A DNA stretch of 64,000 nt, from positions 7,254,001 to 7,318,000 of the forward strand of contig CM102289.1 in assembly GCA_046563655.1 (NCBI GenBank), in the 5' to 3' direction. The notes under the pieces were generated by a model. That model was given only the letters and a program-made list of their open reading frames with translations, was not told the origin of the DNA and ran no database searches. The stretch comes from Yuukianura sp. NJ FZ-2021 (taxonomy: Eukaryota). A program made the position numbers and the translations under genes. Positions 12,862-64,000 of this stretch are shown here, piece after piece (within the stretch, counting starts at the first letter, position 1; each line of letters starts with the position of its first letter).

Positions 12862-14345
12862 TTAGCCGAGGATGTTGCCATCTTTGTCGAAGTCCTTGGC
12901 GGACATCTCTGATGTACGGACAACAAAGTCACCACAAGTACCAACCAGTTGGTAGAGCTTGGTCAACTGACCGGGCTGTACAATGAAGTCAGTAGTTGTA
13001 GTAGTGGCTTCATTGAAAGTTCCAGAGGCAGAATTACTCCAATCGTGTCCAGTTGATTTACTTTTGCCATAATTTTCTCCAAAATTGGCCGAGAGAAAGG
13101 ACAAGGCAACTCCAATTCCTTTACTTCCGCCAGTTGAACTTCCCTCACCCTCATGCTGTCCAGTTGCAGTGGCTTTGCCTTTACTAACACCAACCGTCTT
13201 ATCATACTTGCAGTTAATTGCTGAAGCTCGCATCGTGGCATCACAAGATAGGACCATCTCCCACTTGTCACTTGGTTTACAAGTTGCCGCTGGATTGGGA
13301 ATGTCGCAGCATTGCATCCGAACGTTGTTAAGTGCCGTATTATCTGTTCATAAAAATCCAAATATTAATCAAAATTTTAATCAATTTTCTGTTTTTTTTT
13401 ACCGCCATAGCCGATCCATCTTTGGTCAACGAAGGAAGAAAAGTACGATTGTTCTCGCTCTTCTGGAAATTCAACTTGGGTTTGAATTCCGCAAACGTAC
13501 TGATCGTCCAGACACGACATTCTGCGCTCCCATTCTCCTTTGTCCAGTCCATCTCCTTCTAATTCAGTAGTCTGTCCACTGCAAAATACTCGAAGATTTG
13601 TTGCTCCGTAGTCATCTTGGAGACCTAACATGGAAGATCCACTTCCGCTTTTATCTTTTGCTCCTTGATGTTCAAGGCTTCTCATTTGGAATCCGTTGAT
13701 GAAAGATCCTGAACCGCACCGGAACTTGATTCCCCAGTCACCGAAGTCACCTTCGATACTCACGATGGATCCAACGGGATTAGCTTTAGCATCATCCAGT
13801 TTGCTACAGAAGAGTTCGATGCCATTGAGACCAGTGTCGTCCAGTTTTACTGAAGAGTGATGCATCTCAGCTTTCAAGCGGAAACTTGATGCATATGAGC
13901 CTTTCGGACAATTGTCCCAAGGACCTAAGCAGAAAAAAAATTAATGTCGCTAATGTGGAAAAGCCGCGTAAGGATTAATGACTGTAATTGTAGCCGCACA
14001 TTGTTACCACTCCGCCATTTTATTGGCTACACTTAGCGGCAACTTAAGTAGCCACTTTTACCTAACTGTAAGTGGCAGCACAAGTTGCATCACAGTGCAG
14101 CCACCAAGCATGGCCACTAAATATAGTAAAAATAGAGGCTACGCGGAGTGGCGATAGTATGTGGTTGCAGTGAAAGTCGTTAAACCTTACCCGAACCTGA
14201 GAAATACTTGCAATTTTTTAGAGTACAACGGTTTACCCCATTCTCCCCATTTTGTGACATTTTCACTTTCGATGACAATGTTGCTCTGAACTTGTGAACT
14301 GCTTAGTAAGACAACGCCAACAAATAGTATAGCTTTCGTCGCCAT
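12862..14345 (-). CDS. Secreted VMO-I (beta-prism) domain protein with a C-terminal aerolysin/ETX-MTX2-like extension
   Basis: Exons 14237-14345, 13403-13924, 12862-13343. Signal peptide MATKAILFVGVVLLSS. Three VMO-I repeats ('WGEWG-PWDNCPKG', 'DDTGLNGIELFC', 'GDFGDWG', 'DDYGATNLRVFC', 'VCGIQTQVE', 'DNTALNNVRMQCC'), then a ~140 aa Ser/Thr/Gly-rich domain. Confidence 0.85.
13989..14169. repeat. Degenerate inverted repeat (27-bp arms) in the first intron of the VMO-I gene; possible MITE remnant
   Basis: 13989-14015 (tgtagccgcacattgttaccactccgc) matches the reverse complement of 14143-14169 at 19 of 27 positions, and all mismatches are transitions. The intron (~312 bp) is longer than typical for this window. 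Confidence 0.4.
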
Positions 14346-18285: not shown

Positions 18286-19269
18286 TCAAACTCGCCACTG
18301 GAACAGTAAGAAAAACGATTATATGTGACGATTCTTGAATACTCAATTGTGTTTGGGGTTTGGAAATGCCTCACGTTCAAAACTGGATTGAAGCCACCCT
18401 CTCGAGCAACCTTGTCTTCAGCTTTCTCACGAGCTTCTTGGCGAGCTTTCATACGCTGAAATGCAGCAGAGTCTGGTAACCCTCGCTCTTGTTGTTCCTT
18501 TGCCCGTTTCTCAGCGGCACTGAGCATCTCACGCCGTTTGGCTTCTTCCTCAGTCTAGAATAGTATTAATCAAACTTGAATTAGAGTCGCTCAAGTAAAA
18601 GCACTGGATTTGGGTTACCTCATGTTCATGATCGATTCTTGGTCTTTTCGTAGAGAGGTTTTCTTCAGTGGTAGAATTTGAATGAGAACACGCAGTAGAC
18701 GTGGATGAAACAACTGGAGAAGCAGCTACTGAAGTTGAGGCCGTCGTGATCGTCCTGGAATGGCTCGTTGTTGTGGTGGTCGCTGTCTCTTCTTGAAGGG
18801 TGGGCGCTTGACGCTTGCCGGTAACTACAGACGAATCATTTCGAGCACAATGCCCAATTCCTGTGAATGGCTTGATTGGCTTGGAGGGTGAGGAGGACGG
18901 TCCGGCTCCACTGTTACCAGAGTTTGACCGAGATGGACCCTTTTTGTGTACTTCTTGCTGTTTTGTCCAATTAGCTTCAAACTCCCGGAGAAGATCGGGG
19001 CATTGCAAATTCGCCGCCGGCTCCCAGCTGTTGTCAGAGCTAAAAAGCGGATTGATTGATATAATTAACATTTCCAAACTTTCTCCTCTTATGATTCAAT
19101 AATACATTCTTACTTACTCCGGGTAATTTAACCATTTAATCAGATACTCAGTGCCAGTTTGCAGGGTTCGCTTCATCAATATTTTTTCCACAACGAATTG
19201 CTCATCACTGTCCGATCCTTCTGGAGCACAAGCAGCATAAAGCGTGTCCCAATCCCATTCTTCAGACAT
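18286..19269 (-). CDS. Chromodomain protein with an SVIP-like C-terminal module
   Basis: Exons 19118-19269, 18619-19039, 18375-18554 and 18286-18297 join in frame through canonical GT-AG sites. They give the chromodomain 'FVVEKILMKR..TEYLIKWLNYPDSDNSWEPAANLQCPDLLREFE', a Ser/Thr linker, then 'EEEAKRREMLSAAEKRAKEQQERGL...NPVLN-WRV*'. Confidence 0.75.
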
Positions 19270-19699
19270 CGCGATCGGTTGTAGTATTAAAGATCTAAAA
19301 CATTCCGTAACTGTAGTTTGTATTGGTCTTAATTTTGTATTGTGTAAGTTAACAACCTTACCAGCGTAGTCCGTGTACAGCAATTGTGAATTGATTGATG
19401 CTGATGAATGATGGTAGTAGAAATGATTGTAATGTACCTTCTCAATTTTAGCAGTTTAAACAGACATACATCATGTGTTTCTATGTGCGGAAGCGGATGC
19501 ATGTGAGCGGAACGGAGACAGAAAAAAAATTAAGATTTCCAAAAAAAATTGTTTGTAAACACAAAATCAAACATACGCGCCAAGGCAACTACGAGCGTCA
19601 CTATATCACTTGCTTTCCCCAAATCCAATCCAATATTCTACATTGTCCAAACTTTTATGAGTTTTGAACCTTGAACAACTTTTAGAATAAAAATAGCAT

Positions 19700-21614: not shown

Positions 21615-24600
21615 TTATTTGGTTGAAGTTGAAGTGTTACTTGAATGAGGATTTTCCGAAGCTGAAGCGGAACAGTTTGACAGATTTTCATCAGCCGATG
21701 ATTCTTGTAAATTTTGAAAATGTTCTTGCTCAACTGTCGAAATGGCATTTTCACAAGCATATGAAGCCAGGAATAATCCTACAAAATCAATACAGAAAAG
21801 TTGTCACCAGAAAATGAAAGTTGTCCAAAAAGTGGTAAATTTTGACCTAAATTTAATTTACACCCAAATCGACATACCAGAAGTTGTGCAGAAAAACGCA
21901 TTTGTATTTGTCGCAATTGAATTTTGCAAGTTGACCCTTGACCTTGCATTTTTTTAAATCTATTTTATTTTTTGAAAATATGATGTGATGTGGAAAAACA
22001 TTTAGCTAATGCAAGGCACGGAATTTACGTAGCTCATCCTTTGATGAATAATTCTACTTCAGATTTATAATGAAAGTGAGTCTCCAATTACTTTCATACT
22101 GGAAAGGTTTCGCGGGAAGTTTAAATTTCTGCGCCGCCAAACTAACAACCTATACTTAAGTTTCCAAACTTGTCTAAAACTTTAAGGTTTTCCATTTGGT
22201 CTAAAATTTTGATTAGTCTAATGGATTTCTTACGGTTGCCTACCTCTTTCAGTTAGGACTGGCGGCATTTGAAGGGCATTCATCACAGGCTGAACTTTGG
22301 GGTAGACCGACTGAACTTGTTGCCAACTCATAAATTCAGTTACCTGTTTGGCCAATTGCCAAAACTTGGGGAAATTGATCTGTCCATTGGGCAATCTAGA
22401 AGGAAAAGGAATTAATAAGTTAGTCTTCTAAGTTGAGACTTAGGGAGCCGACTTAAGTCGTTCCTTTGTGAATGTGGAGGAGTCCCATTAGTCTCTGTGA
22501 CCCCTTGACAAGAAGGTGGAGGGAGTAACTAATATGAGCTAGTTGCCCGGGGAGACATGGACTTACTTAGCTCCACATTCCTGCGAGAGAAAGCATACGT
22601 CTTTGACGAAGAGGGACATGAAAGGAACGAGGATCCTTTGTCTCTCTTCAGCATTAGCCTCCGGAACACTCCCGCCAACGCCCGTTTGAACAGTCGACTC
22701 CAGCAGTAGACTCCGCTGCAACGAAAGATTATGACAAGGAACCTGAATTATGAGATTGTCTTTTCACAAATTCTAAGAAAACTACAACTAACTCCCAGTC
22801 CCATTCCTACCCTCCTACCAACCAAACAAGAGCCCATTATGTAAAATTGGAAGTTGGGAACAATGGGAAACTTCCGCAGCTTCACCAGTTCACCAGGGTT
22901 AGCCGCCTTCCAGAAAGTCCTCTTTCGGTACTTCTTGTGTACTTCCGTACTTTACGCATCTCGAGTTTGGCCTCAACTGGAATTGAGGACTTTGATCCAG
23001 GACTTAGGAAGAGGATTCTGGAATGCAGTTTGTAGATAATTGTAGGGAGTAACTTTTTTTTAAGGAAGAGGACTTGGTATTGAGGATATCCTCAAATGAC
23101 ATTTGCTAACCCTACCAAACCTACTTTTGACAAAACAAAAATAAATGGAAGTCAGCTTTCTCTTTTGTAAGTTTCTTCTTGAGACATGGAGCTCTTCTGG
23201 AGTATAACTTCCGAGAACCAGGGAACCACTTACAGCAAAACAGGGTTATTATTCTAGCTTTCACTCGAGTATCTTCATCATTGAAACTTCATTCTCCGTG
23301 GATTAATTACCAAGTCATTCCAGTTCATCCTAAGCCCCAAAGCCCAACATAATAAATCTACACTATACAAAACTATAACTTTTCAACTAAGTTATGTTTT
23401 ACTCCTAACCTAATTTTATAAACGATAGCCTTGGGAAGGCTTTTTAAATGCATAACTGCACCTAAAAATAAGTTTACTAGAGCGTAAATTTTGTTTAAAC
23501 AATGCTTGCCTGAAGGATGAATCTGTAATTGGCATAGTTGTTGGCCGGATTCATCTGTTGGTGCAGAAAATAAAGCTGCGTTTTGTCCACTTTCTCCCAC
23601 TGAAACAAAGTTAGAAAAAAATTCAAGTTTTTTCTTGGTCTAATTTTCACTTAAGAAATAATAACCTTAAAATAAATGAGTTTTAGTTTTGGTTTTATGG
23701 CTTAACTGCTTTGTTAAAATTGTTTTTGAAAAGTTACAACTTTTACAACCTAAAGACTTTTTGAGACTAGTAGAAAACATAATTTTGGCTTTAAGTTTAG
23801 TAAAGTGGACGTAAGACCAAAATCCTTCCAGGAGAAAGTGGATTAATTTCAAAGAAAGCTGAAGGTTTTCAGCCAGCGGAAGGATTAAGTTGAACAGGTT
23901 TGCGCTTCACTGATTTATTCACTACAACTAACTTTCACTTCCCCCTAAAATCAAACTTTTGCTAAAAACCGCAACACTTTCCCAAAAAAAGTGTAATTTC
24001 ATCAAAAAATAATGATCCGTTTACCTTAACAAATGCTGAATCAATATAAAACTATGTCTTAAGCGCCTTATGAAGTCATTAGCTCCTGGAATAGGGAGAG
24101 TCTCGGGGAAAGTGAAAGTGATTTGGACGGAAAAGGTTCAAAGTAAAAAGCTTAAAGGAATTAGTGAGTGCCAAGTAAGGCAAAAGTGTCTTAATGGATC
24201 AAATTGCCACTTACGAAGAAAACTTACAGTAATACAAAAAAGAAACCTGACCGCATAACCCAAAATGTAAACCTAAGATAAAAATAACTTTTTTGATTGC
24301 GTGTACTACTTGATAATACAAAATAAGTTTGGACACTACTCAACTGTTTTCTGGAGTCGTTCCACTGGAGCCATGTTGAAACTCATGATGATGGCCATTA
24401 GGGAATTGAAATTGCCAATATTAAAACACTCTCGGGCCGTTTCAATCCAATAGTCGATGAGAGCCGCTCGAACTTTCATTGTGGGCATCTGGACAAAGTG
24501 ACGAAGAAACATTAAAGAAAAAGCAGGGTTTCGAGATTTCCTGAAAACAGAATGCCCAAGTCTAAATGGTAGTGCTATTACAGCAAATCTGTTCCACTAG

Positions 24601-33600: not shown

Positions 33601-36600
33601 GAAGTTAACAGTTGTGCGTGGGCGTTTCATAAATATTTGCCAAAAAATGAAATTAGCATTTTCAAACCCATTTTCACACACCAGCGGCACAACCGTTCAA
33701 AACGTTCCATGACCAACGGAAGTTTGTTTAATATGTGGAGTCATATTCACTTACTGGGCTACAAAACTGTGTCCTAGAGCTTGACGGTAACGGTTGTTGA
33801 TTCTCGACATTGGAACTGGAAGATGTACTGGGACTAGAGAGTTGAGCTGCTGTCATGGCAACCGAACCTTTGTTTTCACTAAAGTTCGAATTTCCCATGC
33901 ATCCATTAGGCAAGAGAGTCGGATTTTCGGAAGTCGAAGTAGAAGCTGCTTGTTGTTGGTTCAGAGGACTCTGTAACACAAAACAATTTTGAAAACAAAA
34001 TAAAAATTTCTATTAAAAGAAAGTCTTGTTATCTGTTAAAAAATGTGAAAAAAAGACAATGTACAAGTTGAAATTTCATGTAAAAAAAAAGTTGAAACAG
34101 CTAGCTTGAATGTCTCAAAATGAAACTATGTCCAACGACTCGTAACATTTTAATTCTATTTCACACGCACGGAAAGGCAAATTTTCGACAATTTTCAGCT
34201 TTTTGAATTTTCCAAACTAAAAAAACTCAGTTTAGAGTACAACTTCATTAGAGCACAAAAATTGCATGCTTTATTTGTTTTTATCTGAAATCTCACTTGA
34301 AAGCTTTTAGTACTTTTTTTAGTACAGCTTAGTACCACAGGGTGTCTTCATTTTTTAAAAAATTAAACAAAATTTTTGGAGTATCTTTCCGTTTTCGTTT
34401 TTTTCTCCCTAAAAAAGAAAAGTAAAATCAAATTTGATGTCAAAATGTATAAGGCTCTGAGGGAGTTAAATTGTGCATGAATCTTTTTCTTTCAAATTAC
34501 TCTTGCCATTCTGTAACCATAGGCAGACTTGCTCTTATATGAAAACGCAGAGAAAGCATGGGAAATTTTCAACAAAAGTTCAGCATTCCCAGTTTCTTTT
34601 TTCTTCTAATAAGTTTTTCTAGGCTTCCAAGTTCTTTTTTCCTTTTTTGAATTTTCCCTCCTTATACTTTCACTCTCGGCATCTTATTTATGCAGAAGGT
34701 CGTAAACTGAGATAGAGGAACTACTTATGTCATTCTAAAGGCGCCCATTCACTACAGGATTTTCTGTGCTTTGGCCCTCCTCTGTCGCTTTTCTCATCGA
34801 ATTCGGATTTCTGTTGGTCCTAAAATTCTCATTTGCACTCCACAGATCTTCAGCGGCAAAGAAACTTCTTTGTCATCACTTCCACTTTCTCGAGAGCATC
34901 CCCAGATAATAAAACGAAACAAAGTTTACACACTACCAAATACGACTACATAGACTGTTTTGTGCTGGATTTAGAAATTTTGCAGAGGTGAAGCTATAAC
35001 GCTCGTTCTTGTCTCCATTCCAGCAGAAAAGTTCATAAAATGAAAACAGCGCCCGGAATTGGTCAAATTACGACGTGGGTAATAGAGAAAAGCGGGAAGA
35101 ACAAACAGGCCTTTGAAGAATAAAAGGAACCACAGAGTAACGTCTGTTCTTGAGTTCTGCCCAATTGTAAAAACAGAGAGACAAAAACATGAGTTTACAA
35201 AAGAAAATGGGAAGTTGTTGGGAAGATTTTCAACGGTTTTCACCAAAAACTTTTCAATTGGAAAACAAGTGTTTGAGCCTATTCCAATTAAACCTCTACT
35301 CTTTAATTGAAAATTAAACCCAAATCTTCTAAAGCTGTTTACTAGAAAAAAAAATAATCAAACTCAACGAAATTGGTTTTTGCAACATCGCACAAACTGC
35401 GCAACAGCGCACAAACTGCGCAACAGCGCACAAACTGCGCAACAGCGCACAAACTGCGCAACAGCGCACAAACGGCGCAACAGCGCACAAACTGCGCAAC
35501 AGCGCACAAACTGCGCAACAGCGCACAAACTGCGCAACAGCGCACAAACTGCGCAACAGCGCACAAACTGCGCAACAGCGCACAAACTGCGCAACAGCGC
35601 ACAAACTGCGCAACAGCGCACAAACTGCGCAACAGCGCACAAACTGACCGTTTACCAGAAATCTTACGGTACTGGGGGAGGCGCCTACTACCAATCCTCC
35701 AATAGTGATTTTTTCCCTTATTTAGAGAATCCACTATATAATTTGTCAAGTGAATAAAAAATCAAGTAAGAAAGGAATTGAGTAATAATTTGTTCGTCGC
35801 ATTTATCAAGCCACTCGAGAACAAAAGTTTTGTGTTGTTATCGACGTAGTGTTTTTGTGGATAGCCATTTTGCAGTCGTTCCATAAAATACACTAAAGCA
35901 CCCAACCACACCCAAGAAGGCAAAGATCACTTGGAACAAGTTATGTTACATTGGATCCAGATTGTGTAGTAAGAGTGTAAGATAAGAAGAACCAAGTTAG
36001 TAGTGTGATAAACCATTGGGGAAAGTCTTGGAAGGGAGTAAGACAAGTGAAAGTCAGTGCAAAGGAGAGCAATAGTCGTAAAGCAGATGTTGACTCACTA
36101 CTTTCTCTACTTTGAGAGGAAACGCCTTTAAATGTGGGCATTTTGAGTCCTTAAGCGTCAAATCCTTCATTCTTTTTTCTTCAAAGTGCTAAAGACTAAA
36201 AATCTTTGCGAACATTACACTACCTTTGCTACACTGTAGCAGAAGTCGTTGAGAATGGATTTGAGAATGGTTTTTTTTAGAATGCTTTTTTTTTTTTTGA
36301 AAATAGCATTTTGTGAAAAAGTATTTCGAAAGCGAGCGTTGTGGCAAGATAAAGAATCTGCATTCCCTGGCAGTCCTTACTTTTCCAATTCAAATTCCAA
36401 CTCGGGCGTCCTTGTTTACTCTCTTTTTTTTGGTTTTGAATTTACACACAATTCAGAACGGAATTTGAAATCAGAGCGGAAGTGAAAGCAGGTGAAATCC
36501 TTGACAGAGGATATTGGATAGGCTGACACGGACAGATTTGGGTTTGGAAACGAGAATGTGAAAACCTATCGTAAGGAGGCGGATCACATTTCCTACGGTA

Positions 36601-53840: not shown

Positions 53841-55232
53841 TTATGCTATTTCGCTTAAAACTTTAGAAACAGTGGCATATGAGGTTCGAATTTCCTGTGA
53901 TGTTGTACATAATGGTGGCATCATGTAGATAGTGTTTGCAAGAGGTCTTAGAATAAGTCCCTCCATTGGAAACTTTTTTTTCAAGTAAAGGTTTAAATCA
54001 AAGTCCCATTTTCCCGAAATTTCAAACCCAGAAATAGTCCCCAAATTCCTTGGTTTTACAACTAAGGTGCCAAGGCTCTCTGATAATTCTTTCAATCCCG
54101 TCACGTGAGCATCTTCGATTCTTTGAATAGAGGCAATTGTTTCTGGTCGTCTTAGAATTTCCAAGGATTTGATTGCTGCAGCACACGAAATGGGATTGGC
54201 AGTGTACGAATGTCCATGAACAAAGGCGGATTTAAAATCATCCCCAAGAAATGCTTCGTAAATTTCCTCAGTAGTAATTGTAAGCGCTAAAGGTAGAAAT
54301 CCACCCGTAATTCCTTTAGAAACACACAAAAAGTCAGGATGACAACGATCTGGAAGCTGCTCATGCGCAAAGAAAGTTCCAGTTCGACCAAATCCTGTCA
54401 TCACTTCGTCAAAAATTACTAAACAGGAATGTTGTCTCACAAGGTCAACCACTTTTTCCAGAAATTGTGCTCGGCACATGCGCATTCCACTAGCCCCTTG
54501 AACAAGCGGTTCCAAAATTATGGCGGCAATTGATTTTTCATTTTCGTTTAGATGTCGCTCCAATACAGTTAACGCTTCTGCTTCTTTATTTTCAACTTCA
54601 CTGTCGCCGTTCCAAGTCGCTGGAAATGGTACGAGCAGCGTTTCAAAAAATAAATTTCTGAAAGTATCGAAATAGCCTGAGCCACGACCAACAGACATTG
54701 CTCCAAATGTGTCACCGTGGTACCCACCTTCAAAGCACAAAAAGTGACGGCGTTCATGACTTTTACGGTTGATCCAAAACTGGTACGCCATTTTCAGTGC
54801 AACTTCGACAGCGGTAGATCCATTGTCAGAGAAAAAGAAACGTTTGAATTTTGGCGCCAAAATTTCAGTTAGAGATTCACAGAGAGTCACTGCCGGTTCG
54901 TGGGTAAAGCCAGCAAACATGACGTGGTCAAGGGATTTGGCTTGCTTAAAAATTGCTTCAGCAATTTCTGGATGGCAATGGCCGTGGATATTCACCCACC
55001 AACTGGACACGAGATCTAAGTAGGCTTTTCCTTTATCATCGTAAATGTAAGATCCACTGGCGCGAACAATTGGAATTGGATCTCCCGCCGTTTTTGCTTG
55101 TGTAAATGGATGCCAAATTAGCTGCAAATCACGTCCACTCAATGTTTTTTTGGTTCTAGGAAACTGATTTAAAAGTCCTCGTTTTTTGGATAAAGTTTGA
55201 ACAAACCTTTCCAGTTTTATTGAATTTTGCAT
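53841..55232 (-). CDS. bioA: 7,8-diaminopelargonic acid aminotransferase (class III PLP aminotransferase of biotin synthesis), bacterial type, intronless
   Basis: Single 463-aa ORF with BioA signatures 'IWHPFTQ', 'YLDLVSSWWVNIHGH', 'HVMFAGFTHEPA', 'FFSDNGSTAVEVALKMA', 'YHGDTFGAMSV', 'EPLVQGASGM', 'IFDEVMTGFGRTG', catalytic Lys in 'SKGITGGFLPL', 'HGHSYTANP', 'LRPLANTIY'. Confidence 0.97.
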   Translation of the reverse strand: MQNSIKLERFVQTLSKKRGLLNQFPRTKKTLSGRDLQLIWHPFTQAKTAGDPIPIVRASGSYIYDDKGKAYLDLVSSWWVNIHGHCHPEIAEAIFKQAKSLDHVMFAGFTHEPAVTLCESLTEILAPKFKRFFFSDNGSTAVEVALKMAYQFWINRKSHERRHFLCFEGGYHGDTFGAMSVGRGSGYFDTFRNLFFETLLVPFPATWNGDSEVENKEAEALTVLERHLNENEKSIAAIILEPLVQGASGMRMCRAQFLEKVVDLVRQHSCLVIFDEVMTGFGRTGTFFAHEQLPDRCHPDFLCVSKGITGGFLPLALTITTEEIYEAFLGDDFKSAFVHGHSYTANPISCAAAIKSLEILRRPETIASIQRIEDAHVTGLKELSESLGTLVVKPRNLGTISGFEISGKWDFDLNLYLKKKFPMEGLILRPLANTIYMMPPLCTTSQEIRTSYATVSKVLSEIA

Positions 55233-55562
55233 TGGTACGACCTTATAGTAACACAGAAAAACTGCTTAAAAAACAGTTGTAACTGCACCATGTGTCTTAA
55301 GTACTAACTGTAAAATGTAATTTCCAAGGGATTTTAGAGGTCTAAAGTGAATCTGTAGTGTGCATCGTAGACTATTACAATCAAAAGTAACTCCACTATA
55401 CTTATGCTAGTTGAAAAGTTCAAAAGTTATCTATTTTAGATAACAATGTTATTTCTATTTACTTTTTCAAACCGAGTGCAGTTAATTTAAGTTGTTGTTT
55501 TTTTGTTTCTTTTGAAAGGTTTGAGTAGCAATATTTGTGCATTAGAGATGCATGAAAAATAT

Positions 55563-58560
55563 TCACTCGTTTCGACGACTTTGCCATCGAGCACTGCTTG
55601 ACATTTGGAATTCGGAACTTCGGGTGTCAGCAACGGGTTGTCCAAGACAGCGGGAGAGGCCTGGACACTTGCGCAGAAGTGAAATTAGCTCTGAGCGGAA
55701 CTTGCTTCCCAAGATGGAGTAGAAGAAGAAGTTGACCGAGGAATTGACAATGACTGGGATAGAAGAGAAAACTTCGATGTCTCTGGGGTCATAGTTTCCA
55801 AAGGACACGAATACCCAGATGATAGTTCCATTGATTACGTTACTAATAACGAAAAAAATACTGACGCACAGAAGCATTACAGTCAGAGAGGTCATGTCAC
55901 TTTCACCTGACGCAGTCGACATAGAGCGGCGACTCCTAAGTGACTGTTTGACCTGTCAAAAATCATAAAAACTAAATAAGAAAACCAGTGATTTAAAAAA
56001 AAAAAAATTCAAATAAGGCGATTATAATCCATTTTATATTAATCTACGGTTGCGCGGTTACTCCAGCCCGATTATTTTCCCGATTATAATCGCCCAAAAA
56101 AGAATCCACAAAAAGGAGGATTCTTGCAGATTAATCTACCTTCACCCATATTTTTGAATTGAGGAATGTTAGGGTAGGAATTGGAACGACGTACATCAGA
56201 ATAGCCCAGAAATAACCGTGGTAGAATACTCTGTAAAAACGTTCTTGTAAAATGTTCGGCCGATTGTAACGTCGAACGAGCGTTTCTTGAAACTGAAACG
56301 AGTCATTTCCATGTTGTCTTAACTGAAAACCCAGTGTGGATCCAATAATTTCAAACCATCGCGGGAAATTTACAACAATGGCTCCAATGAAGACCAGAAT
56401 GCTCATGATAACTGCTTTTCGTTTGCTTGTCCAAAATCTAATTTGAAGTGGATAGCACACTGCAACAAAACGTTCAATTGTCACCAGAATTGTGATGTAA
56501 ACGGATGCTGTGTGTGCTAAAAAGAGTTAATGAGGTTTGATTTTTTTTAAATATTATAATTTAACTAGTACAATAACTTAAGTAATGTTAATAATACCTG
56601 TTTTACTTAACGGATAAACGAAGGTTGATTGAATTTGTTCGAGTGACCAAATGGCATGCATTGGATTTTCTCCGAGGATGGAAAATGAGGTCCTATCGCC
56701 TCGGATGGTGTAATAAATATTGAGGAATAGTGAAATCAATTTGAATCCATAAAGTGGCAGGGACACAATCAGTGTTCCTAAAAGTGTTAAATCAAACAGC
56801 GCAAGCGCAATCATGAAGCAGCTTGTTGAGCTCATCATGCTTTTCCTCGTCAGAACTGCAATGCACAAGACGTTTCCAAAAATACCAACGAAACAAATAG
56901 CACCTAGAACGCATATATAGACGTGGAAAATCGTAACTTCTTTTTGCGACTTGTCTTCATGTCGCAGTCCAAAAAAATGCCATGTCCCGTTCACTTTTCT
57001 TAAACTAGCTACATTTCCTACTTTTGTAGAGTTTGCATGTTCCAGAAATGTTTTGACTTGCACATTTTCTTCTCCAATTTGCTGCAAACCTTTGATTGTC
57101 AAGTTGACCATTGAAGTTTTCAAAAGTTGCAGCAAAACTTCGTCATTGATTTGATTGTACAAATTTACGGACTCTGTGTTATTGAAAACGAATGAAAAGT
57201 TTTCCAGGAACACTTTGTCCAGCTCACAGTTGTCCAATGTCAGAAACCGAAGTGATTTGAACAGGAAAGGCGCGGTCATTTTTAATTTGAGGTTGGTCAG
57301 GTACAACAAGCTCATTTGGTTCATCGATTCCGAAAATATTGACAGATCCAAGGTTACGTTTTGTGTTGAATCTCTGCGTTGAAGTTTTACAGAGCTGAGT
57401 TTGCTTAAGTTCCGTAAGAACTCGAATCCGCCAATAGCAAAGTCGAGATTCAACATATTTACTTCCTGTATGTTGTTGAACTTGATACCAGTGCTGTTGA
57501 ATGTTGTGTTGGAAAGTTCAAGTACCCTGAGCTGCGGTAACGCAGTCACTGTATCTGTTGCTGATGAGTAAACTAGATCTGCGGTTTGAAGCGTTAACGA
57601 AGTTAAGGATTCGCGATTGAGGTAATGCAAGTCGTACGTCGGAGTCGACATTTCAAATTTTACATTTTGTAACTTCAGGCTGAAACGAACAAAACAGACG
57701 AGTGCTAAATTATTAATTGAGCTCCATTGAAAGTTCAATTTGGAGTTTCTTACGTTTCAACTTGATTGAGTTTTTGAAAAAGTACGTTTGGCGAAGCATT
57801 TAAAAATGTTGTTGACCTGTAAGCTTCAAATTTAGTTACCCCAATGCCATTAAATTTTGACAAGTCAATAATAGTTTTTGTAGCTTCAAGTTTTTTGTAG
57901 GGAAAGTACTGCTGCAAGTCATATGGAATTCCTTCCAATTCCAAAGTCTCCGTAGAGTAATCAAAACTTCCACCAAATTCAGCCTGAATAGTTGTGGTTA
58001 TTTCGGCTAGAGAAGTTAAATTACCTTTAGGAACAAAGAACAGCGTGTCAAAAAATTCGGCGGAAGTGCTATCAGAAAACCCCCACTTTTTGCGCTCAAT
58101 TCTAACTTTGCGTAAGTGCGGAAAAAATATTTTGTTTTCAAAGTTTCCATTCCAAACAACGGAGTATAACTTGATGGTGGTTAGTTCGGTGCATTCCTTC
58201 AATTCATGTAGCAAAGTTTTCGGATCAAATTCCACTATAGTTAGTGTAAGGCCTTGAATTGCTGATTTATTTTCATACATGATTTTTTCAAATTTTTCAA
58301 ATGGGTAGTGTTCCAAATTTCCGCGTATTACTACTTCATCGTTCATCTAAAAAAATACATTATAATTTTCGGTTGTAAATTAAATATGTTGATCGAAATG
58401 AATCTTGAAAATTAGTGTTGCAAATGCAATTGCAATTATTAACTTTTAATGTTATGCATACCACGGTTTCTTGAAGACATTCCACATACAAATTAATACA
58501 AATTAAAATAAAAATTGCAAGAGAAAAGCGGCGCGATGATTTCCGCACGAGCGTAGGCAT
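55563..58560 (-). CDS. Class A GPCR (FMRFamide-receptor-like 7TM) with LRR-like ectodomain, copy 1
   Basis: Exons 58462-58560, 57754-58346, 56598-57679, 56140-56516, 55563-55952. Hydrophobic N-terminus; LxxLxLxxN/C repeats; TM1 'GIFGN', TM2 'LALFD', TM3 'HTASVYITILVTIERFVAVCYPL', TM4 'NFPRWFE', TM5 'YVVPIPTLTFLN', TM7 'NSSVNFFFY'. Confidence 0.85.
56017..56094. mobile_element. Small inverted-repeat (MITE-like) insertion in the last intron of GPCR copy 1
   Basis: 13-bp inverted repeats GGCGATTATAATC...GATTATAATCGCC. This intron is ~187 bp versus ~67-70 bp in copies 2 and 3. Confidence 0.4.
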
Positions 58561-58891
58561 TTCAGGATATTTTCAAAATTAAAACAACAGTAAGCAAGAA
58601 ATTCTTAAGATTTTTGTGTAATTCTACTGAGACTTTGAAATTAGCACTGCATCACTACTTAACAGTGCAGCGGCATAAAAGCTGCCTTTTTTAAAAAAAA
58701 TTAAGAGAAGACGCTTTCTCTACCAATTAACATTTGCGGCTGGCAATTAGAAACCTGTCTTTCCTCTATTATAATATTTAATATTTTACCGTGTTGTTCT
58801 ATGAAGAAAAATTACAGAATATTGGCAGCAAGCTAGCAGTTTCGACGAAACACGAGTCCGCTTTTCAGTTTTTTATGCACTGATTTATGCA

Positions 58892-61755
58892 TCAATGACT
58901 TCGACGATTTTGCAATCGAGTACTGCTTGACATTCTGAATTCGGAGCTCCGGAGATCAGCCACGGGTTGTCCAAGACAGCGGGAGAGGCCAGGGCACTTG
59001 CGCAGAAGTGAAATCAGCTCGGCGCGGAACTTCCTGCCCAAAATAGAGTAGAAAAGGAAGTTGACAGATGAATTGACAATGACTGGAATTGAAGAGAAAA
59101 CTTCGATGTCTCTGGGATCATAGCTTCCAAAGGACACGAATACCCAGATGATTGTTCCATTGATTACGTTACTAATAACGAAAAAAATACTCACACACAG
59201 AAGCATTACCGTCAAAGAGGTCATGTCACTTTCGCCTGACGCAGCAGACATGGATTGACGATTCTTCAGTGACTGTTTGACCTATCAGAAAAAGAGAAAA
59301 CGAAAAATAAAAACATTGATAAAAAAAATTGCTAGTTTTGATGCCCTCACCTTAATCCATATTCTTGAATTGAGCACAGTGAGTAGAGGAATTGGAATGA
59401 CGTACATGAGGATAGCCCAGAAGTAGCCATGGTAGAATTGCCTGTAAGCACGCTCTTGCAAAATGTTTGGCTCATTGTACGCTCGTATCAAAATTTTTTG
59501 CCATTGTGCTAGGTTCTTCGGATTCCTTTGCCTTTGCACTTTAATGGTAGAGCCAATAGTTTCAAACCAACGCGGTAAATTTACAACCACTGCTCCAATG
59601 AACACGATTATGCTCATAATAACTGCTTTCCGTTTGCTTGTCCAAAACCGAATTTGAAGTGGGTAGCACACTGCTACAAATCGCTCCAACGTCACAATAA
59701 TTGTTATGTACACAGATGCAGTGTGCGCTGAAAAGTTTTATATATTAGTTTTCTAGTATTTTAATATTTAAAATGCAACTTAATAAAAATAAAACTGTTA
59801 TAAAATTATTATTGTGCTCAAACCTGTTTTACTGAGGGGGTAAATATACTTGGACTGAAATTCTTCCAGCATCGTAACGGTTTCAATAGGCTGTTCTCCA
59901 AGAAGAGAAATTTGAGTTCCAGAACTCGCAACACCCCATGGAAAATCATAAATTCCGAGGAATAGTGACACCAATTTGAATCCGTAAAGCGGTTGAGATA
60001 AAATCAGCGTCCCCAGAATTGTTATATCAAACAGCGCAAGCGCAATCATCAAGCAGCTTGTAGAGCTCATCATAGCCCTCCTCGTCAGTACTGCAATTGA
60101 AACAACGTTTCCAAATATTCCAACCAAACAAAGGGCACCTAGAACGCATATGTAGACATAGAAAATAGTGACTTCTGTAGTTATTTCGTCTTCTGGTCGA
60201 ACTCCAAAAAATTCCCATCTTCCATTGTACTTGCGTAGTTTAACATAATTTCTCTGTTTTGTAGAATTTGCATCTTCCAAAAATTTAAACACCTTGGTAT
60301 TTTCTGCTCCGATTTGTTGCAGTCCTGTGATTGTTAAGTCTGTCATTGAAGTATTCAAAAGTTGCCGCAAAAGATCGTCGTTGATCTGATTTATCAGATC
60401 TACGTTTCGCAAGTGACTGAACATGTATGAAATATTTTCGACAACAGTGTCATCCAGGTCACAATATTCTAGTGACAGAGACCGGATAGACTTGAATTGA
60501 AATCGTGAAGTCAATGTTAGTTTTAGGTCACTGAGCGACAGCCATCTTATTGACTTCAGAGATTCCATAAGAATTGAGAGGTCAAAGGTCACTTTTTGCT
60601 TCGTATCGCTTTGGTCAATGGTTATTGATTCAAGGGAAGCCAAATTCCTTAGAAATTGGAACCCTCCGACTTCAAATTTGACGTTGCGCAGTTCCACTTC
60701 TGTCAACACTGTACTGTTGAATTTGATTCCAGCGCTGTTGAATGCGGAGTTGTAAATTTTAAGCGTATTCAACTTGGGCAGACTAGTTGGCTGATCGATT
60801 GATGCTGATGAATGGACAAGAACTGCATTGTCAATTGTCAACGACGTTAAGGATTCAGCATTGAGGTATTTCAAGTCATACGTTGGAACTGAATGTTCGA
60901 ATGTCGCATTTCGCAATTTCAGTCTGTGAAAAGATATAAAAAAAAAGTCGTGTTTACTTATAATTTGGTGCCGAAAATAATTTTGGTTTTCTTACTCAAC
61001 AATGTTGGTTAGTTTTTCAAGAAGTGCGTATGGCAAACGATTTAAAAATTTTGAACTCCGCACATCAAGTTTGGTCACCTCGCTTCCATTGAATTTTGAC
61101 AAGTCAATAACAGTTTCTACGGCTTCAAGGACTTTGTATGGAAAGTACTGCTGTACATCGTATGGAATTTGCTCCACATTTAGCTTTTTCATAAAATAGA
61201 CAAACTTTCCACCATGTTCAGGCTGAAGAATTGTGGTCATAGTGGCGATGGAAGCCAATTGCTCGTTTGTAGCATAGAACAAAGTATCCATAAAATGTTC
61301 CTGCGTGCTTTCAGCAAATCCCCATTTTTTCCTCCGAATCTCAACTCTGTATAATCTGGGTAGAGATACTTTCCCGCCAAATCGCCCATTCCATACAACG
61401 CCATTGAGCTTGATGTCAGTTAGGTTTGCGCATTCCTTTAGTTCTTGTAGTAAATTTTTTGGATCAAATTCAATTGCAATTAGTGTAAGGCCTTTAATTG
61501 CTGATTTATTTGCATATTGGATTTTTTCAAATTTTTCAAGAGGATAATGCTCCGGCTCTCCGCTAATTGTTACTTGATCCCTCAACTAAAAAAAGTATAC
61601 AACATCAATAGCTTTTGTTTGAATCGATTGCAAGTCAATTTTTGTTATATGTGTTAACATACCACGATTTCTTCTAGACTTTCTACATGTGGAAAAATAG
61701 ACGTTGCAAAAACAAAAATAGTCCAAGACTTAAGTACGAGTATGAAAATTGACAT
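58892..61755 (-). CDS. Class A GPCR (FMRFamide-receptor-like 7TM) with LRR-like ectodomain, copy 2
   Basis: Same five-exon layout as copy 1 (approximately 61663-61755, 60996-61585, 59824-60923, 59351-59727, 58892-59281). Contains 'VTLERFVAVCYPL' and 'NSSVNFLFY'. Confidence 0.85.
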
Positions 61756-62085
61756 ATTTTTATTCTTCAAAAATATTGGGAAAACAACCGATCGAACTGT
61801 TTTTATAAAAATCGTTTTCGTCAACTTACTTTTGTCTCGAAGACGCTTGAGTTTTATATTAGCAACTTATGATTAGTTAACGCGTGGTAACAGGAATGTG
61901 CTTTTGCGCTTGCTAAAACTTGCTCTTTAGCGGCTAACCATTTCCGCAATTAGTAACTTGTTTTTCCTCAATTAAAATAATTCAAATTTTACCGAGGTTG
62001 TTCTATGCAGAAATAAATTACAGAAACTGCACGTTAGCAGTTTGGACTAAATGCGAATCCACTTTTTTGTGCATTGATTTAAAAA

Positions 62086-64000
62086 TTAATGACTTCGACC
62101 ACTTTGCCAGCGAGTACGACTTGACATTACGAATTCGGAACTTCGGGGATCTGTCATTGGTTGTCCAAAGCAATTAGCTAGGCAAGGGCACTTGCGCAGA
62201 AGTGAAATTAGCTCTAAGCGGAACTTCTTTCCCAAGATGGAGTAGAACAAGAAGTTGACAGAGGAATTGACAATGACTGGAATGGAAGAGAAAACTTCGA
62301 TGTCTCTGGGATCATAGCTTCCAAAGGACACGAATACCCAGATGATGGTTCCGTTGATTACGTTACTAATTACGAAAAAAATACTGACGCACAGAAGCAT
62401 TACGGTCAGTGAGGTCATGTCACTTTCGCCTGACGCAGCAGACATGGATTGGCGATTCTTCAGTGACTGTTTGACCTATCAGAAAAAGAGAAAACCAAAA
62501 ATAAAAACATTGATTAAAAAAAATTGCTAATTTTGTTGGCCGCACCTTAATCCATATTCTTGAATTGAGCACAGTGAGTAGAGGAATTGGAATGACGTAC
62601 ATGAGGATAGCCCAGAAGTAGCCATGGTAGAATTGCCTGTAAGCACGTTCTTGTAAAATGTTTGGCTCATTGTACGCCCGTACCAAAATTTTTTGCAATC
62701 GTGCTATGTACATCGGATTCCTTCGCATTTGCACTTTAATCGTAGAGCCAATAGTTTCAAACCAACGCGGTAAATTTACAACGATGGCTCCAATGAACAC
62801 GATTATGCTCAAAATAACTGCTTTCCGTTTGTTTGTCCAAAACCGAATTTGAAGCGGGTAGCACACTGCTACAAATCGCTCCAACGTCACAATAATTGTT
62901 ATGTACACAGATGCAGTGTGTGCTAGAAAGTTATTTAATATATTAAAACACAATTCTATAAAAATAAAACTTTTATAAATGTACTCAATACCTGTTTTGC
63001 TCAGCGGGTAAATATACTTGGACTGGAATTCTTCCAGCATCGTAACGGTCTCAATAGGTTGTTTTCCAAGGAGAGAAATTTCAGTTCCAGAACTGAAATG
63101 GCCCCATGGAAAATCATAAATTCCGAGGAATAGTGACACCAATTTGAATCCGTAGAGCGGTTGAGATAAAAACAACGTCCCCAGAATTGTTATATCAAAC
63201 AGCGCAAGTGCAATCATGAAGCAGCTTGTAGAGCTCATCATAGCCTTCCTCCTAAGGACTACAATGGAAATGACGTTTCCTAAAATTCCAACCAAACAAA
63301 CACCTCCGAGAACGTATATGTAGACGTAGAAGATCGTAACTTCTGTTGTCGCTTTGTCTTCTGGTCGAACTCCCAAAAATACCCATCTTCCATCGTACTT
63401 GCCTAGCCTAACATAATCTCCTTGCTTCGTAGAATTTGCATCTTCCAAAAATTTAAACACCTTGGCATTTTCTGCTCCGACTTGTTGCAGTCCTGTGATT
63501 GTTAATTCAGTCATTGAAGTATTCAAAAGTTGGCGCAAAAGGTCGTCGTTGATCTGATTGGTCAGATATACGTTTTCTAACTGACTGAACATGAATGAAA
63601 TATTTTCGACAACAGTGTCATCCAGGTCACAATTTTCTAGTGATAGAGAACGGATTGATTCGAATTGAAATCGTGAAGTCAATGTTAGTTTTAGGTCGCT
63701 TAGCGACAGCCATCTTATTGACTTCAGAGATTCCTTAAGAACTGAAAAGTCAAAGGTCATCTTTTGCTTCATATTACTTTGCTCAATGGTTATTGTATTA
63801 AGGGAAGTCAAATTCCTTAGGAATTCGAATCCTCCAACTTCAAATTTGACGTTGCGCAGTTCAATTTCTGTCAACACTGTACTGTTCAATGTGATTCCAG
63901 CGCTGTTGAATGCGGAGTTGTAAATTTTAAGCGTGTTCAACTTGGGCAGAATAGTTGGGTGATCGATTGATGCTGATGAATGGACAAGAACTGCATTGTC
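62086..64000 (-). CDS. Class A GPCR (FMRFamide-receptor-like 7TM) with LRR-like ectodomain, copy 3 (5' end beyond the window)
   Basis: Exons 62992 to beyond 64000, ~62546-62922 and ~62086-62474. Highly similar to copy 2. Confidence 0.85.

Follow-up and report, generated by a model that had tools for sequence, protein, structure and literature searches.

A putative fusion of an HP1-type chromodomain to an SVIP-like p97/VCP-docking module in Yuukianura sp. NJ FZ-2021

The DNA analysed is a stretch of 64,000 nucleotides from Yuukianura sp. NJ FZ-2021 (contig CM102289.1, positions 7,254,001 to 7,318,000), referred to below as the window. Read on its minus strand, the sequence yields a 254-codon frame made up of four exons, with GT-AG boundaries at all three introns (Table 1). 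When joined in silico the frame comprises 765 nt and has one stop codon only, at its end. Every feature of a preliminary description of this DNA was found on the minus strand, at the positions given there. The clean phase-0 splicing claimed there applies to introns 2 and 3, the latter leading into the 12-nt W-R-V exon, but not to intron 1, which is in phase 2 and splits an Asp codon (GA/C). A tblastn search with the four gene pieces found no second copy in the window. Repeats around the gene amount to a single 23-nt pair, and no transposon signature was seen there.

Table 1. Features of the putative chromodomain/SVIP-like gene; positions are those of the window, and a slash marks an exon–intron boundary.
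Feature	Positions	Strand	Description	Basis
5' UTR intron (tentative)	19295..19361	-	67 nt, CGCTG/GTAAGG ... TTTTAG/ATC; 25 nt 5' of the ATG	GT-AG and length only
Coding exon 1	19118..19269	-	Met1 (MSEEW), acidic S-D-S-D-E stretch, first half of chromodomain; phase-2 end (GA/)	
HP1-type chromodomain	18976..19197	-	split by intron 1	limits of Pfam matches; solved relatives CBX5, Drosophila HP1, CBX1
Intron 1	19040..19117	-	78 nt, GTAAGT...TTTTTAG, phase 2, within chromodomain	
Coding exon 2	18619..19039	-	second half of chromodomain, then 114-residue Ser/Thr-rich hinge ending K-R-P-R-I-D-H-E-H-E	
K-R-P-R	18637..18648	-	end of hinge; possible nuclear localisation signal	sequence; signal function presumed
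Intron 2	18555..18618	-	64 nt, GAG/GTAACC ... CTAAT ... TTCTAG/ACT, phase 0; junction carrying the putative fusion	
Coding exon 3	18375..18554	-	SVIP-like module (VIM helix, R-G-L, second helix, E-G-G-F-N-P)	Pfam, atlas, P0004, predicted helices
VIM-type motif	18501..18536	-	R-RE-MLS-AA-EK-R-A, exon-3 residues 7-18	regex match; consensus Rx2h3AAx2Rh (PMC5389986)
Intron 3	18298..18374	-	77 nt, AAC/GTGAGG...TTCCAG/TGG, phase 0	
Coding exon 4	18286..18297	-	terminal micro-exon, W-R-V-stop, 12 nt	

As judged from sequence comparison, the chromodomain is solid and of the HP1 type. Scanned against Pfam one exon at a time, exon 1 matched the Chromo profile (PF00385) over positions 1-27 of 53 (E 7e-7, 29.5 bits, passing the cut-off of 25.1) and exon 2 matched it over positions 29-51 (E 1.3e-3, 19 bits). 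The closest solved relatives in a PDB search were CBX5/HP1 (E 1.4e-4 for exon 1 and 2.9e-4 for exon 2), followed by Drosophila HP1 and CBX1, and residues 15-48 of the CBX5 chain align with exon 1 and 52-100 with exon 2. Intron 1 is validated in this way, because both the profile and the CBX5 chain run on across it. The core positions of the domain are all intact, and Phe25, Trp46 and Tyr49 align with the CBX5 Tyr of E-E-Y-V-V-E-K and with the Trp and Phe of K-W-K-G-F, which we take to be the positions of the methyl-lysine aromatic cage. Thus both halves matched in the Chromo scan that the preliminary description had proposed as a check, and its HP1-type chromodomain with aromatic-cage residues is borne out by the Pfam and CBX5 alignments. 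The absence of a chromoshadow domain, also claimed there, holds in so far as Pfam detected none in exons 2 and 3, nor in 41 ORFs of at least 40 aa on both strands of the 2.7 kb downstream (15.6-18.3 kb). Exon 2 with its hinge contains 22 Ser, 18 Thr and no Met, and the basic patch near its end may serve as a nuclear localisation signal.

The translation of exon 3 spans TEEEAKRREMLSAAEKRAKEQQERGL to GGFNPVLN. Its best Pfam family is SVIP (PF15811), matched over profile positions 18-64 of 66 (E 0.022, 15.3 bits) in a scan that took exon 3 without the terminal W-R-V of exon 4. The family cut-off of 27 is not reached, and because four of 41 control ORFs from the flank also drew Pfam matches at E 0.014-0.064, the score taken alone lies within the noise. 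No Pfam match at E 0.1 or better was obtained with the longer stop-to-stop ORF (126 residues) in which exon 3 lies. A sub-threshold score is, however, to be expected, because the SVIP proteins of fly and human are only 35% identical according to an excerpt of PMC11310202, and because the 17 N-terminal positions of the profile are missing here. The same family was named by the protein atlas, where the two nearest clusters both carry PF15811 (scores 0.91 and 0.90, with 194 and 187 of 256 features) and where 22 of the 30 matches belong to the PF15811-bearing set. With those clusters excluded, the atlas gave no usable match to any named cluster. Thus the SVIP-like module of the preliminary description stands in that Pfam and the atlas both name SVIP, the scan proposed as a check having returned it as the best family, but not at the level of the Pfam cut-off; judged from the sequence, the likeness is real but weak.

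The second claim made for exon 3 was a VCP-interacting motif (VIM), for which an excerpt of PMC5389986 gives the consensus Rx2h3AAx2Rh. The pattern R-x5-AA-x2-R is indeed present, but the register that fits spans exon-3 residues 7-17 and begins with the first Arg of K-R-R, not with the second, as had been read. When exon 3 was shuffled 200,000 times with its composition preserved, the pattern arose in 4,206 cases (2.1%), and across the six frames of the window (127,996 codons) it occurs only three times, two of them inside exon 3. Structure prediction places helices at exon-3 residues 2-25, which contain the VIM and have pLDDT values in the 60s, and at residues 29-52. The position of the pattern is that of the SVIP profile's own VIM: the Pfam alignment begins at profile position 18, and the VIM of human SVIP is given as residues 18-35 in the excerpt of PMC11310202.

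It is possible that the four-exon mRNA is real and that its tail is no p97 adaptor, being instead a charged helical extension of a lineage-specific HP1-like protein. The resemblance to SVIP would then reflect composition or remote descent, and the tail would make a hinge or coiled-coil contact, or would be a relic that does not bind p97. A charged, Ala-rich exon of this kind (14 Lys+Arg, 13 Asp+Glu and 10 Ala among 60 residues) easily draws weak profile matches, such as the one in the noise range reported above. The only PDB match of exon 3 is a designed repeat protein (E 0.37), and the protein does not end in Ser as SVIP does. Furthermore, the second occurrence of the pattern in exon 3, R-GLPDS-AA-FQ-R, spans a Gly-Leu-Pro turn at which a VIM helix is unlikely, and therefore the pattern can arise in this exon without being a VIM. 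Nevertheless, we consider this reading rather unlikely. Among about 25,000 families Pfam and the atlas agree on a single small one, and the atlas offers nothing else once SVIP is removed; the profile match extends beyond a single helix; the first pattern lies at the VIM place of the SVIP profile; and the part of exon 3 outside the VIM is kept in the one relative that we found, at 31 of 41 residues.

That relative (P0004) is the sole match to exon 3 in a phmmer search of 1.84 billion representatives, and is a 45-residue exon fragment from another organism. The 31 identical residues lie in an alignment without gaps, the changes being mostly conservative, and P0004 stops two codons past the same exon end. 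Its end reads L-T-V-S-stop, as expected from read-through of a GTnAGy donor at the place of intron 3. Hence P0004 conserves a part of exon 3 together with the donor, and covers neither the VIM nor the exon 2/3 junction; it has no Pfam match. The fragment comes from a 9,637-nt JGI contig and its first residue is Val. A profile built from exon 3 and P0004 found nothing beyond P0004 among proteins of 24-105 residues, and exon 2 had no relatives among proteins of 77-245 or of 246-2000 residues. In a pattern scan of metagenomes none of 598 pattern matches was confirmed. Four metagenome loci (L001-L004), for which P0004 had served as the confirming sequence, were rejected, since their ORFs, G+C-rich or enzyme-coding, are unrelated and have nothing in common with it beyond words like D-A-A-A-F-E-R-M. 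The search for the fusion in other genomes, which the preliminary description had suggested, therefore returned no fused relative among the 1.84 billion representatives: P0004 was the only match, and it stops short of the junction.

A whole-protein orthologue was thus not found in the protein searches, and no canonical poly(A) signal lies near the stop codon, downstream of which there are only the variants TATAAA at 18155 and AATAAG at 18116, the first AATAAA being at 16851. Both observations would suit a decaying locus, in which an HP1 duplicate that has lost its chromoshadow exons lies beside an SVIP remnant that has lost its first exon, the frames being open by chance. However, a stop-free stretch of 181 codons in DNA of 37% G+C is very unlikely without selection (we estimate about 3e-6 per start), the chromodomain core is undamaged, and exon 3 has come through in P0004 free of gaps and stops, with mostly conservative changes and with the same exon end. 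Decay of the locus is accordingly very improbable in our estimate.

The joining of exons 2 and 3 in the mRNA is what the gene structure suggests, and the putative fusion has its basis in that structure. The donor of intron 2, GTAACC, differs from GTRAGT at +5 and +6 and is the weakest of the three. The 64-nt stretch contains CTAAT ∼27 nt 5' of the acceptor and contains no AATAAA. With intron 2 retained, the frame would run on for 22 codons and end at a TGA (18552-18550). The acceptor is exactly where the SVIP-like frame opens, the codon preceding 18554 being a TAG that contains the acceptor AG, and the first ATG in exon 3 is that of residue 10, within the VIM and three residues past its first Arg. 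Since exon 2 encodes no Met, a full-VIM product of this transcript must start in exon 1. A calibration of donor usage by window-wide GT...AG pairs with 40 open flanking codons was dropped, as it gave 1,400 mostly spurious candidates. Also dropped was a GTAACT in the upstream gene, considered as a second donor of the GTAACC kind, where the frame just reads through.

These details also bear on the reading that the locus gives separate products and that the 254-residue fusion is an artefact of the gene model or a minor isoform. Retention of the 64-nt intron would give a chromodomain-only protein of 213 residues, resembling Oxpecker. An SVIP-like protein of 54 residues would start at Met10, either by use of an internal start site or through trans-splicing of a spliced leader to the 18554 acceptor, and one of 72 residues would begin with a distant MG leader, for example at 22837-22811. 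The weak donor of intron 2 and the orderly stop after its retention are in keeping with this, as are the existence of chromodomain-only HP1 relatives (Oxpecker, 7vrf_A, is among the 36 solved matches, at E 0.0084) and the 53-residue length of the nearest atlas clusters. Moreover, the SVIP score is not lower when counted from Met10 (16.4 bits, against 15.3 for the whole exon), the nine residues before it adding nothing. On the other hand, a start at Met10 leaves out the VIM's initial signature Arg, which stands at the exact consensus spacing, and provides no Gly2. The 64 nt leave no room for the 3' end of an upstream gene and lack an AATAAA. No spliced-leader RNA gene was found in the window with Rfam, which weighs little, as such genes may lie elsewhere.

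The case for a separate SVIP-like protein with a leader of its own turns on the mini-ORF at 22837-22811, which reads M-G-S-C-L-V-G-R-R and ends in a phase-0 GT donor. Its Gly2 and Cys4 resemble the N-termini of the fly and human proteins as given in the excerpt of PMC11310202. Between 18.6 and 45 kb there are 13 MG candidates with a phase-0 donor, and none of the other 12 has a Cys close to its N-terminus; by a rough estimate, about 0.5 M-G-x-C occurrences are expected in that stretch by chance. Against it stands its place, as it appears to lie inside an upstream RasGEF gene on the same strand, between two pieces of that gene. Pfam RasGEF positions 55-108 are matched in 24336-24596 and positions 108-139 in 23510-23599. 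The ORFs at 22.2-22.8 kb and 21.6-21.8 kb matched RasGEF neither in Pfam nor in the PDB; by eye, from V-P-F and I-N-F-x-K motifs, we take 22566-22715 and 22245-22394 to encode the rest of the RasGEF domain. The preliminary description had found no MG leader exon nearby, and we agree that there is no credible one, the sole M-G-x-C mini-ORF being read as part of the upstream gene. Overall, separate products seem unlikely to us.

We regard a chromodomain fused to an SVIP-like tail, in a 254-residue p97-docking protein of three parts, as the best explanation of the locus, and hold it with slightly less than even confidence. In the N-terminal part the HP1-type chromodomain would be preceded by an acidic stretch, S-D-S-D-E, of CK2-like character, and the middle part would be the Ser/Thr-rich hinge with the basic K-R-P-R patch at its end. 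The C-terminal part, at the place where HP1 has its chromoshadow domain, would match an SVIP-like protein over its C-terminal two thirds: the helical VIM (R-x2-h3-AA-x2-R-h) is followed by an R-G-L turn and then by a second helix, and the chain closes with G-G...W-x-V. SVIP itself has its p97-binding VIM placed on membranes by a lipid anchor, made up of myristoyl-Gly2 and palmitoyl-Cys. The protein encoded here begins M-S-E-E-W and its exon-3 Met10 is followed by Leu; with an M-S-E start it has no Gly2 or Cys anchor. Because a methyl-lysine reader would thus replace the anchor exon, the fusion protein would tether p97/VCP (Cdc48, TER94), by the p97 N domain, to H3K9-methylated chromatin. At such sites it might deliver the unfoldase, or it might occupy p97 N domains and exclude other cofactors, as SVIP does. 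Such a gene could have arisen when the 3' exons of an adjacent SVIP gene were captured. The combination of a chromodomain with an SVIP-like tail is, on the present sequence, a plausible new architecture.

p97/Cdc48 strips proteins from chromatin, and the adaptors that recruit it for this purpose are, to our knowledge, directed by ubiquitin or SUMO. A more doubtful proposal is that the gene embodies an anchor swap, in which the body of SVIP, without its lipid-anchor exon, is spliced behind an H3K9me reader. The product would be a dedicated adaptor that sets p97/VCP hexamers directly on heterochromatin marked by methyl-lysine, that needs no ubiquitin or SUMO intermediary, and that either extracts heterochromatin proteins or holds p97 and excludes its N-domain cofactors. 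In a bolder form of this proposal, the same 3' exons may be used under two promoters, giving membrane-bound and chromatin-bound forms of one p97 adaptor. If the fusion is true, chromatin state and unfoldase would be linked directly, with a histone mark read at one end of the protein and the p97 N domain held at the other, and the SVIP module would be a portable 'p97 hook', the location of which is set by the attached anchor. Should exons 2 and 3 not be joined, what remains is an ordinary HP1-like paralogue beside an SVIP remnant.

Compared with the HP1/chromobox proteins (CBX5, CBX1, CBX3 and Drosophila HP1), the predicted protein has the same chromodomain, an acidic, Ser-rich lead-in that aligns with S-S-S-E-D-E-E-E of CBX5, and, after the domain, an N-L-x-C-P-D-L-L-x-E-F segment followed by a disordered hinge. 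It differs in having an SVIP-like module at the C-terminus in place of a chromoshadow domain, and so would lack the HP1 dimer platform for PxVxL partners. Chromodomain-only HP1 relatives such as Drosophila Oxpecker (PDB 7vrf, set beside it by the title of the PDB entry) likewise have an HP1-type chromodomain without a chromoshadow domain; we know of no p97-binding motif in them.

With other VIM-bearing p97 cofactors (such as gp78/AMFR, UBXD1 and ANKZF1) the putative fusion would share a linear helical VIM joined to a domain for targeting or processing. As partners of the VIM, the excerpt of PMC5389986 lists RING, CUE, PUB, ankyrin and zinc-finger domains, and the chromodomain is not among them. 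In the literature collection searched, no paper contained both 'VCP-interacting motif' and 'chromodomain', and two papers that contained both 'SVIP' and 'chromodomain' were, judged by title and abstract, unrelated.

The likeness to SVIP itself (PF15811; human SVIP, Drosophila CG32039) lies in the VIM, Rx2h3AAx2Rh, near the start of the module, in the R-G-(L/I) turn after the VIM helix and in the G-G...W-x-V end. In contrast to SVIP, which needs Gly2 and Cys4/Cys7 for lipid anchoring (excerpts of PMC7820495 and PMC11310202), the protein has no Gly2 myristoylation or Cys palmitoylation site. It has 254 residues where SVIP has 77-82, it carries the chromodomain and hinge in place of 17 N-terminal profile positions, and it ends in Val (W-R-V), without the terminal Ser that is highly conserved in SVIP from fly to human (PMC7820495). 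What the two would have in common is the logic of an anchor combined with a VIM.

The window has a G+C content of 37%, as animal-type DNA, and Pfam families on its larger ORFs comprise cytochrome P450, Kelch, VOMI, RasGEF, M1 peptidase and Srw-type receptors. The four coding pieces claimed in the preliminary description for the minus strand, 19269–18286, can be read in the sequence as described, and a scripted join gives a spliced frame of 765 nt, a multiple of three, whose sole stop is terminal. The phase-0 splicing described there applies to introns 2 and 3; intron 1 is in phase 2, with GA/C forming an Asp codon.

Coordinates of features in and around the chromodomain–SVIP-like gene and elsewhere in the window
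Feature	Position	Strand	Basis or detail
Introns 1, 2, 3	78, 64, 77 nt	minus	all GT-AG; scripted join
Probable 5' UTR intron, 67 nt	19361–19295	minus	sequence reading only
Second R-x5-AA-x2-R (R-GLPDS-AA-FQ-R)	18485–18453	minus	exon 3 residues 24–34
Mini-ORF M-G-S-C-L-V-G-R-R, then phase-0 GT donor	22837–22811	minus	
Upstream RasGEF gene, profile 55–108	24336–24596		Pfam
Upstream RasGEF gene, profile 108–139	23510–23599		Pfam
19-nt unit tandem repeat	35382–35646		13.9 copies, 98% identity
VOMI-domain ORF	13377–13940	minus	Pfam E 4e-30
ORF adjoining the VOMI ORF	12862–13347	minus	no Pfam match
bioA-type ORF	53841–55265	minus	unbroken, 474 codons
Tandem paralogous receptor genes	56578–64000	minus	at least three

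Exon 1 matches Pfam Chromo positions 1–27 (E 7e-7, over the cut-off) and exon 2 matches positions 29–51 (E 1.3e-3). Against solved structures, exon 1 found 36 sequences at E ≤1, headed by CBX5 (1.4e-4), Drosophila HP1 and CBX1, while exon 2 found 14, again with CBX5 at the top (2.9e-4). On the CBX5 chain, the exon 2 alignment (52–100) takes up where that of exon 1 (15–48) leaves off, so intron 1 is confirmed by continuity. The S-D-S-D-E stretch of exon 1 is paired in the CBX5 alignment with an acidic, serine-containing run. Phe25, Trp46 and Tyr49, corresponding to the F..W..Y cage first proposed, align with the HP1 residues that we take to be its aromatic cage. In agreement with its claimed absence, Pfam detected no chromoshadow domain, whether in exons 2 and 3 or among the 41 ORFs (at least 40 aa, both strands) of the 2.7-kb downstream flank. 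The 114-residue hinge is rich in Ser (22) and Thr (18), lacks Met and terminates in K-R-P-R-I-D-H-E-H-E, where K-R-P-R is a possible nuclear signal.

The best Pfam family for exon 3 is SVIP (PF15811), matched over profile positions 18–64 of 66 at E 0.022; the score is 15.3 bits against a cut-off of 27. As a control, 4 of 41 flanking ORFs matched assorted Pfam families at E 0.014–0.064, and therefore the exon 3 score alone is at noise level; the 126-residue ORF comprising exon 3 and its read-through had no Pfam match. What raises the match above noise, and sustains the SVIP-like module originally described, is the agreement between methods. The protein atlas ranks two PF15811 clusters first (0.91 and 0.90, with 194 and 187 shared features) and has 22 of 30 matches in the PF15811 set; without those clusters, it gives no usable match to any named cluster. 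In addition, R-RE-MLS-AA-EK-R-A satisfies the VIM consensus Rx2h3AAx2Rh, as given in PMC5389986. The R-x5-AA-x2-R register proposed earlier also fits, but from the first Arg of K-R-R. This register, looser than the consensus, arises in 2.1% of shuffles of exon 3 (4,206 of 200,000); of its three occurrences in all six frames of the window (127,996 codons), two are within exon 3. AlphaFold, run with a two-sequence alignment, places helices at exon 3 residues 2–25 and 29–52, interrupted at G-L-P-D; the mean pLDDT is 73.9, with lower values of 64–69 in the VIM region. Since SVIP identity between fly and human is reported as only 35% (PMC11310202), a partial SVIP domain in a distant animal is not expected to exceed the cut-off.

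When exon 3 was compared by phmmer with 1.84 billion representative sequences, one protein was returned, P0004, of 45 residues on a 9,637-nt JGI contig, and additional protein searches gave no other relative. An ungapped alignment pairs 41 residues of P0004 with exon 3, 31 of them identical, and P0004 terminates in V-S-stop two codons beyond the exon 3 boundary. This is the ending expected from a GTnAGy donor read through, so that another organism conserves both exon 3 and the splice donor at its 3' end. P0004 starts downstream of the VIM and has no bearing on the exon 2/3 junction. It keeps the second R-x5-AA-x2-R as R-GLPDA-AA-FE-R; this pattern runs across the gap between the predicted helices and so is unlikely to be a VIM. 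Against the SVIP reading, exon 3 begun at Met10 scores higher in Pfam (16.4 bits), P0004 has no Pfam match, and the protein lacks the terminal Ser of SVIP, described as highly conserved (PMC7820495). On balance, descent of the tail from SVIP is likely; that it may still bind p97 is a less secure proposition.

Whether exons 2 and 3 form one gene is the central question, and the case for a fusion is argued from gene structure. In the exon 3 frame, the codon immediately before 18554 is TAG, holding the acceptor AG, the earliest ATG is at residue 10, within the VIM and past its first Arg, and exon 2 is devoid of Met. Consequently, any product that keeps the whole VIM has to reach exon 3 by splicing and, if made from this transcript, has to begin in exon 1. 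Intron 2 has CTAAT ∼27 nt ahead of its acceptor and no AATAAA. Its donor, GAG/GTAACC, is the weak point of the junction, and retention of the intron would yield a 213-residue chromodomain-only protein with a stop at 18552–18550. We lean towards the fusion mRNA being real.

A rival explanation would in part supply the tail with its own SVIP leader. A scan of 18.6–45 kb on the minus strand for ATG-GGN mini-ORFs with a phase-0 GT donor gave 13 candidates. Only one, M-G-S-C-L-V-G-R-R at 22837–22811, has an SVIP-like start, its N-terminus resembling the M-G-x-C-L of fly SVIP. As it sits between parts of the upstream RasGEF gene, we read it as intronic and fortuitous, and the claimed lack of a nearby MG leader holds on this reading; the rival is nevertheless kept. 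By eye, the rest of the RasGEF domain lies in ORFs 22566–22715 and 22245–22394, although neither Pfam nor PDB searches bore out these two. Also by eye, the RasGEF exon 23599–23510 apparently ends CAG/GCAAGC (23504–23510, minus strand), possibly a GC-AG intron.

Elsewhere in the window, the bioA ORF encodes a bacterial-type adenosylmethionine-8-amino-7-oxononanoate transaminase (TIGR00508, 533 bits against a cut-off of 405; Pfam Aminotran_3, E 5e-101), and its location between intron-bearing animal genes makes it a candidate horizontally acquired biotin-synthesis gene. Each receptor unit has an ORF of ∼197 aa and then one of ∼395 aa that ends in a match to Pfam 7TM_GPCR_Srw (E 1e-5 to 3e-6). 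Their long, repeat-like extensions at the N-terminus match no Pfam family. The 19-nt repeat generates long spurious ORFs in all frames.

Chromodomain and SVIP modules are each known, and their combination is new to us. No literature match pairs 'VCP-interacting motif' with 'chromodomain', papers pairing 'SVIP' with 'chromodomain' have, to judge from title and abstract, no connection with the subject, and among the matches listed for Cdc48, heterochromatin and HP1 no title or abstract opening describes such an adaptor. Interest is moderate until a transcript or orthologue confirms the exon 2/3 join. The protein might act as a chromatin-tethered p97 hook, in which the chromodomain would bind H3K9me and the VIM helix the p97 N-domain cleft, resulting in local unfoldase activity or local sequestration. 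This whole chain is tentative, its probability falling a little short of even. SVIP itself is described as a lipid-anchored VIM protein that brings VCP to lysosomal and other membranes, competes with other cofactors and is reportedly the sole known cofactor to occupy every one of the hexamer's six N domains (PMC7820495, PMC5389986, PMC11310202). In the protein proposed here, that lipid anchor would be exchanged for an HP1-type reader.
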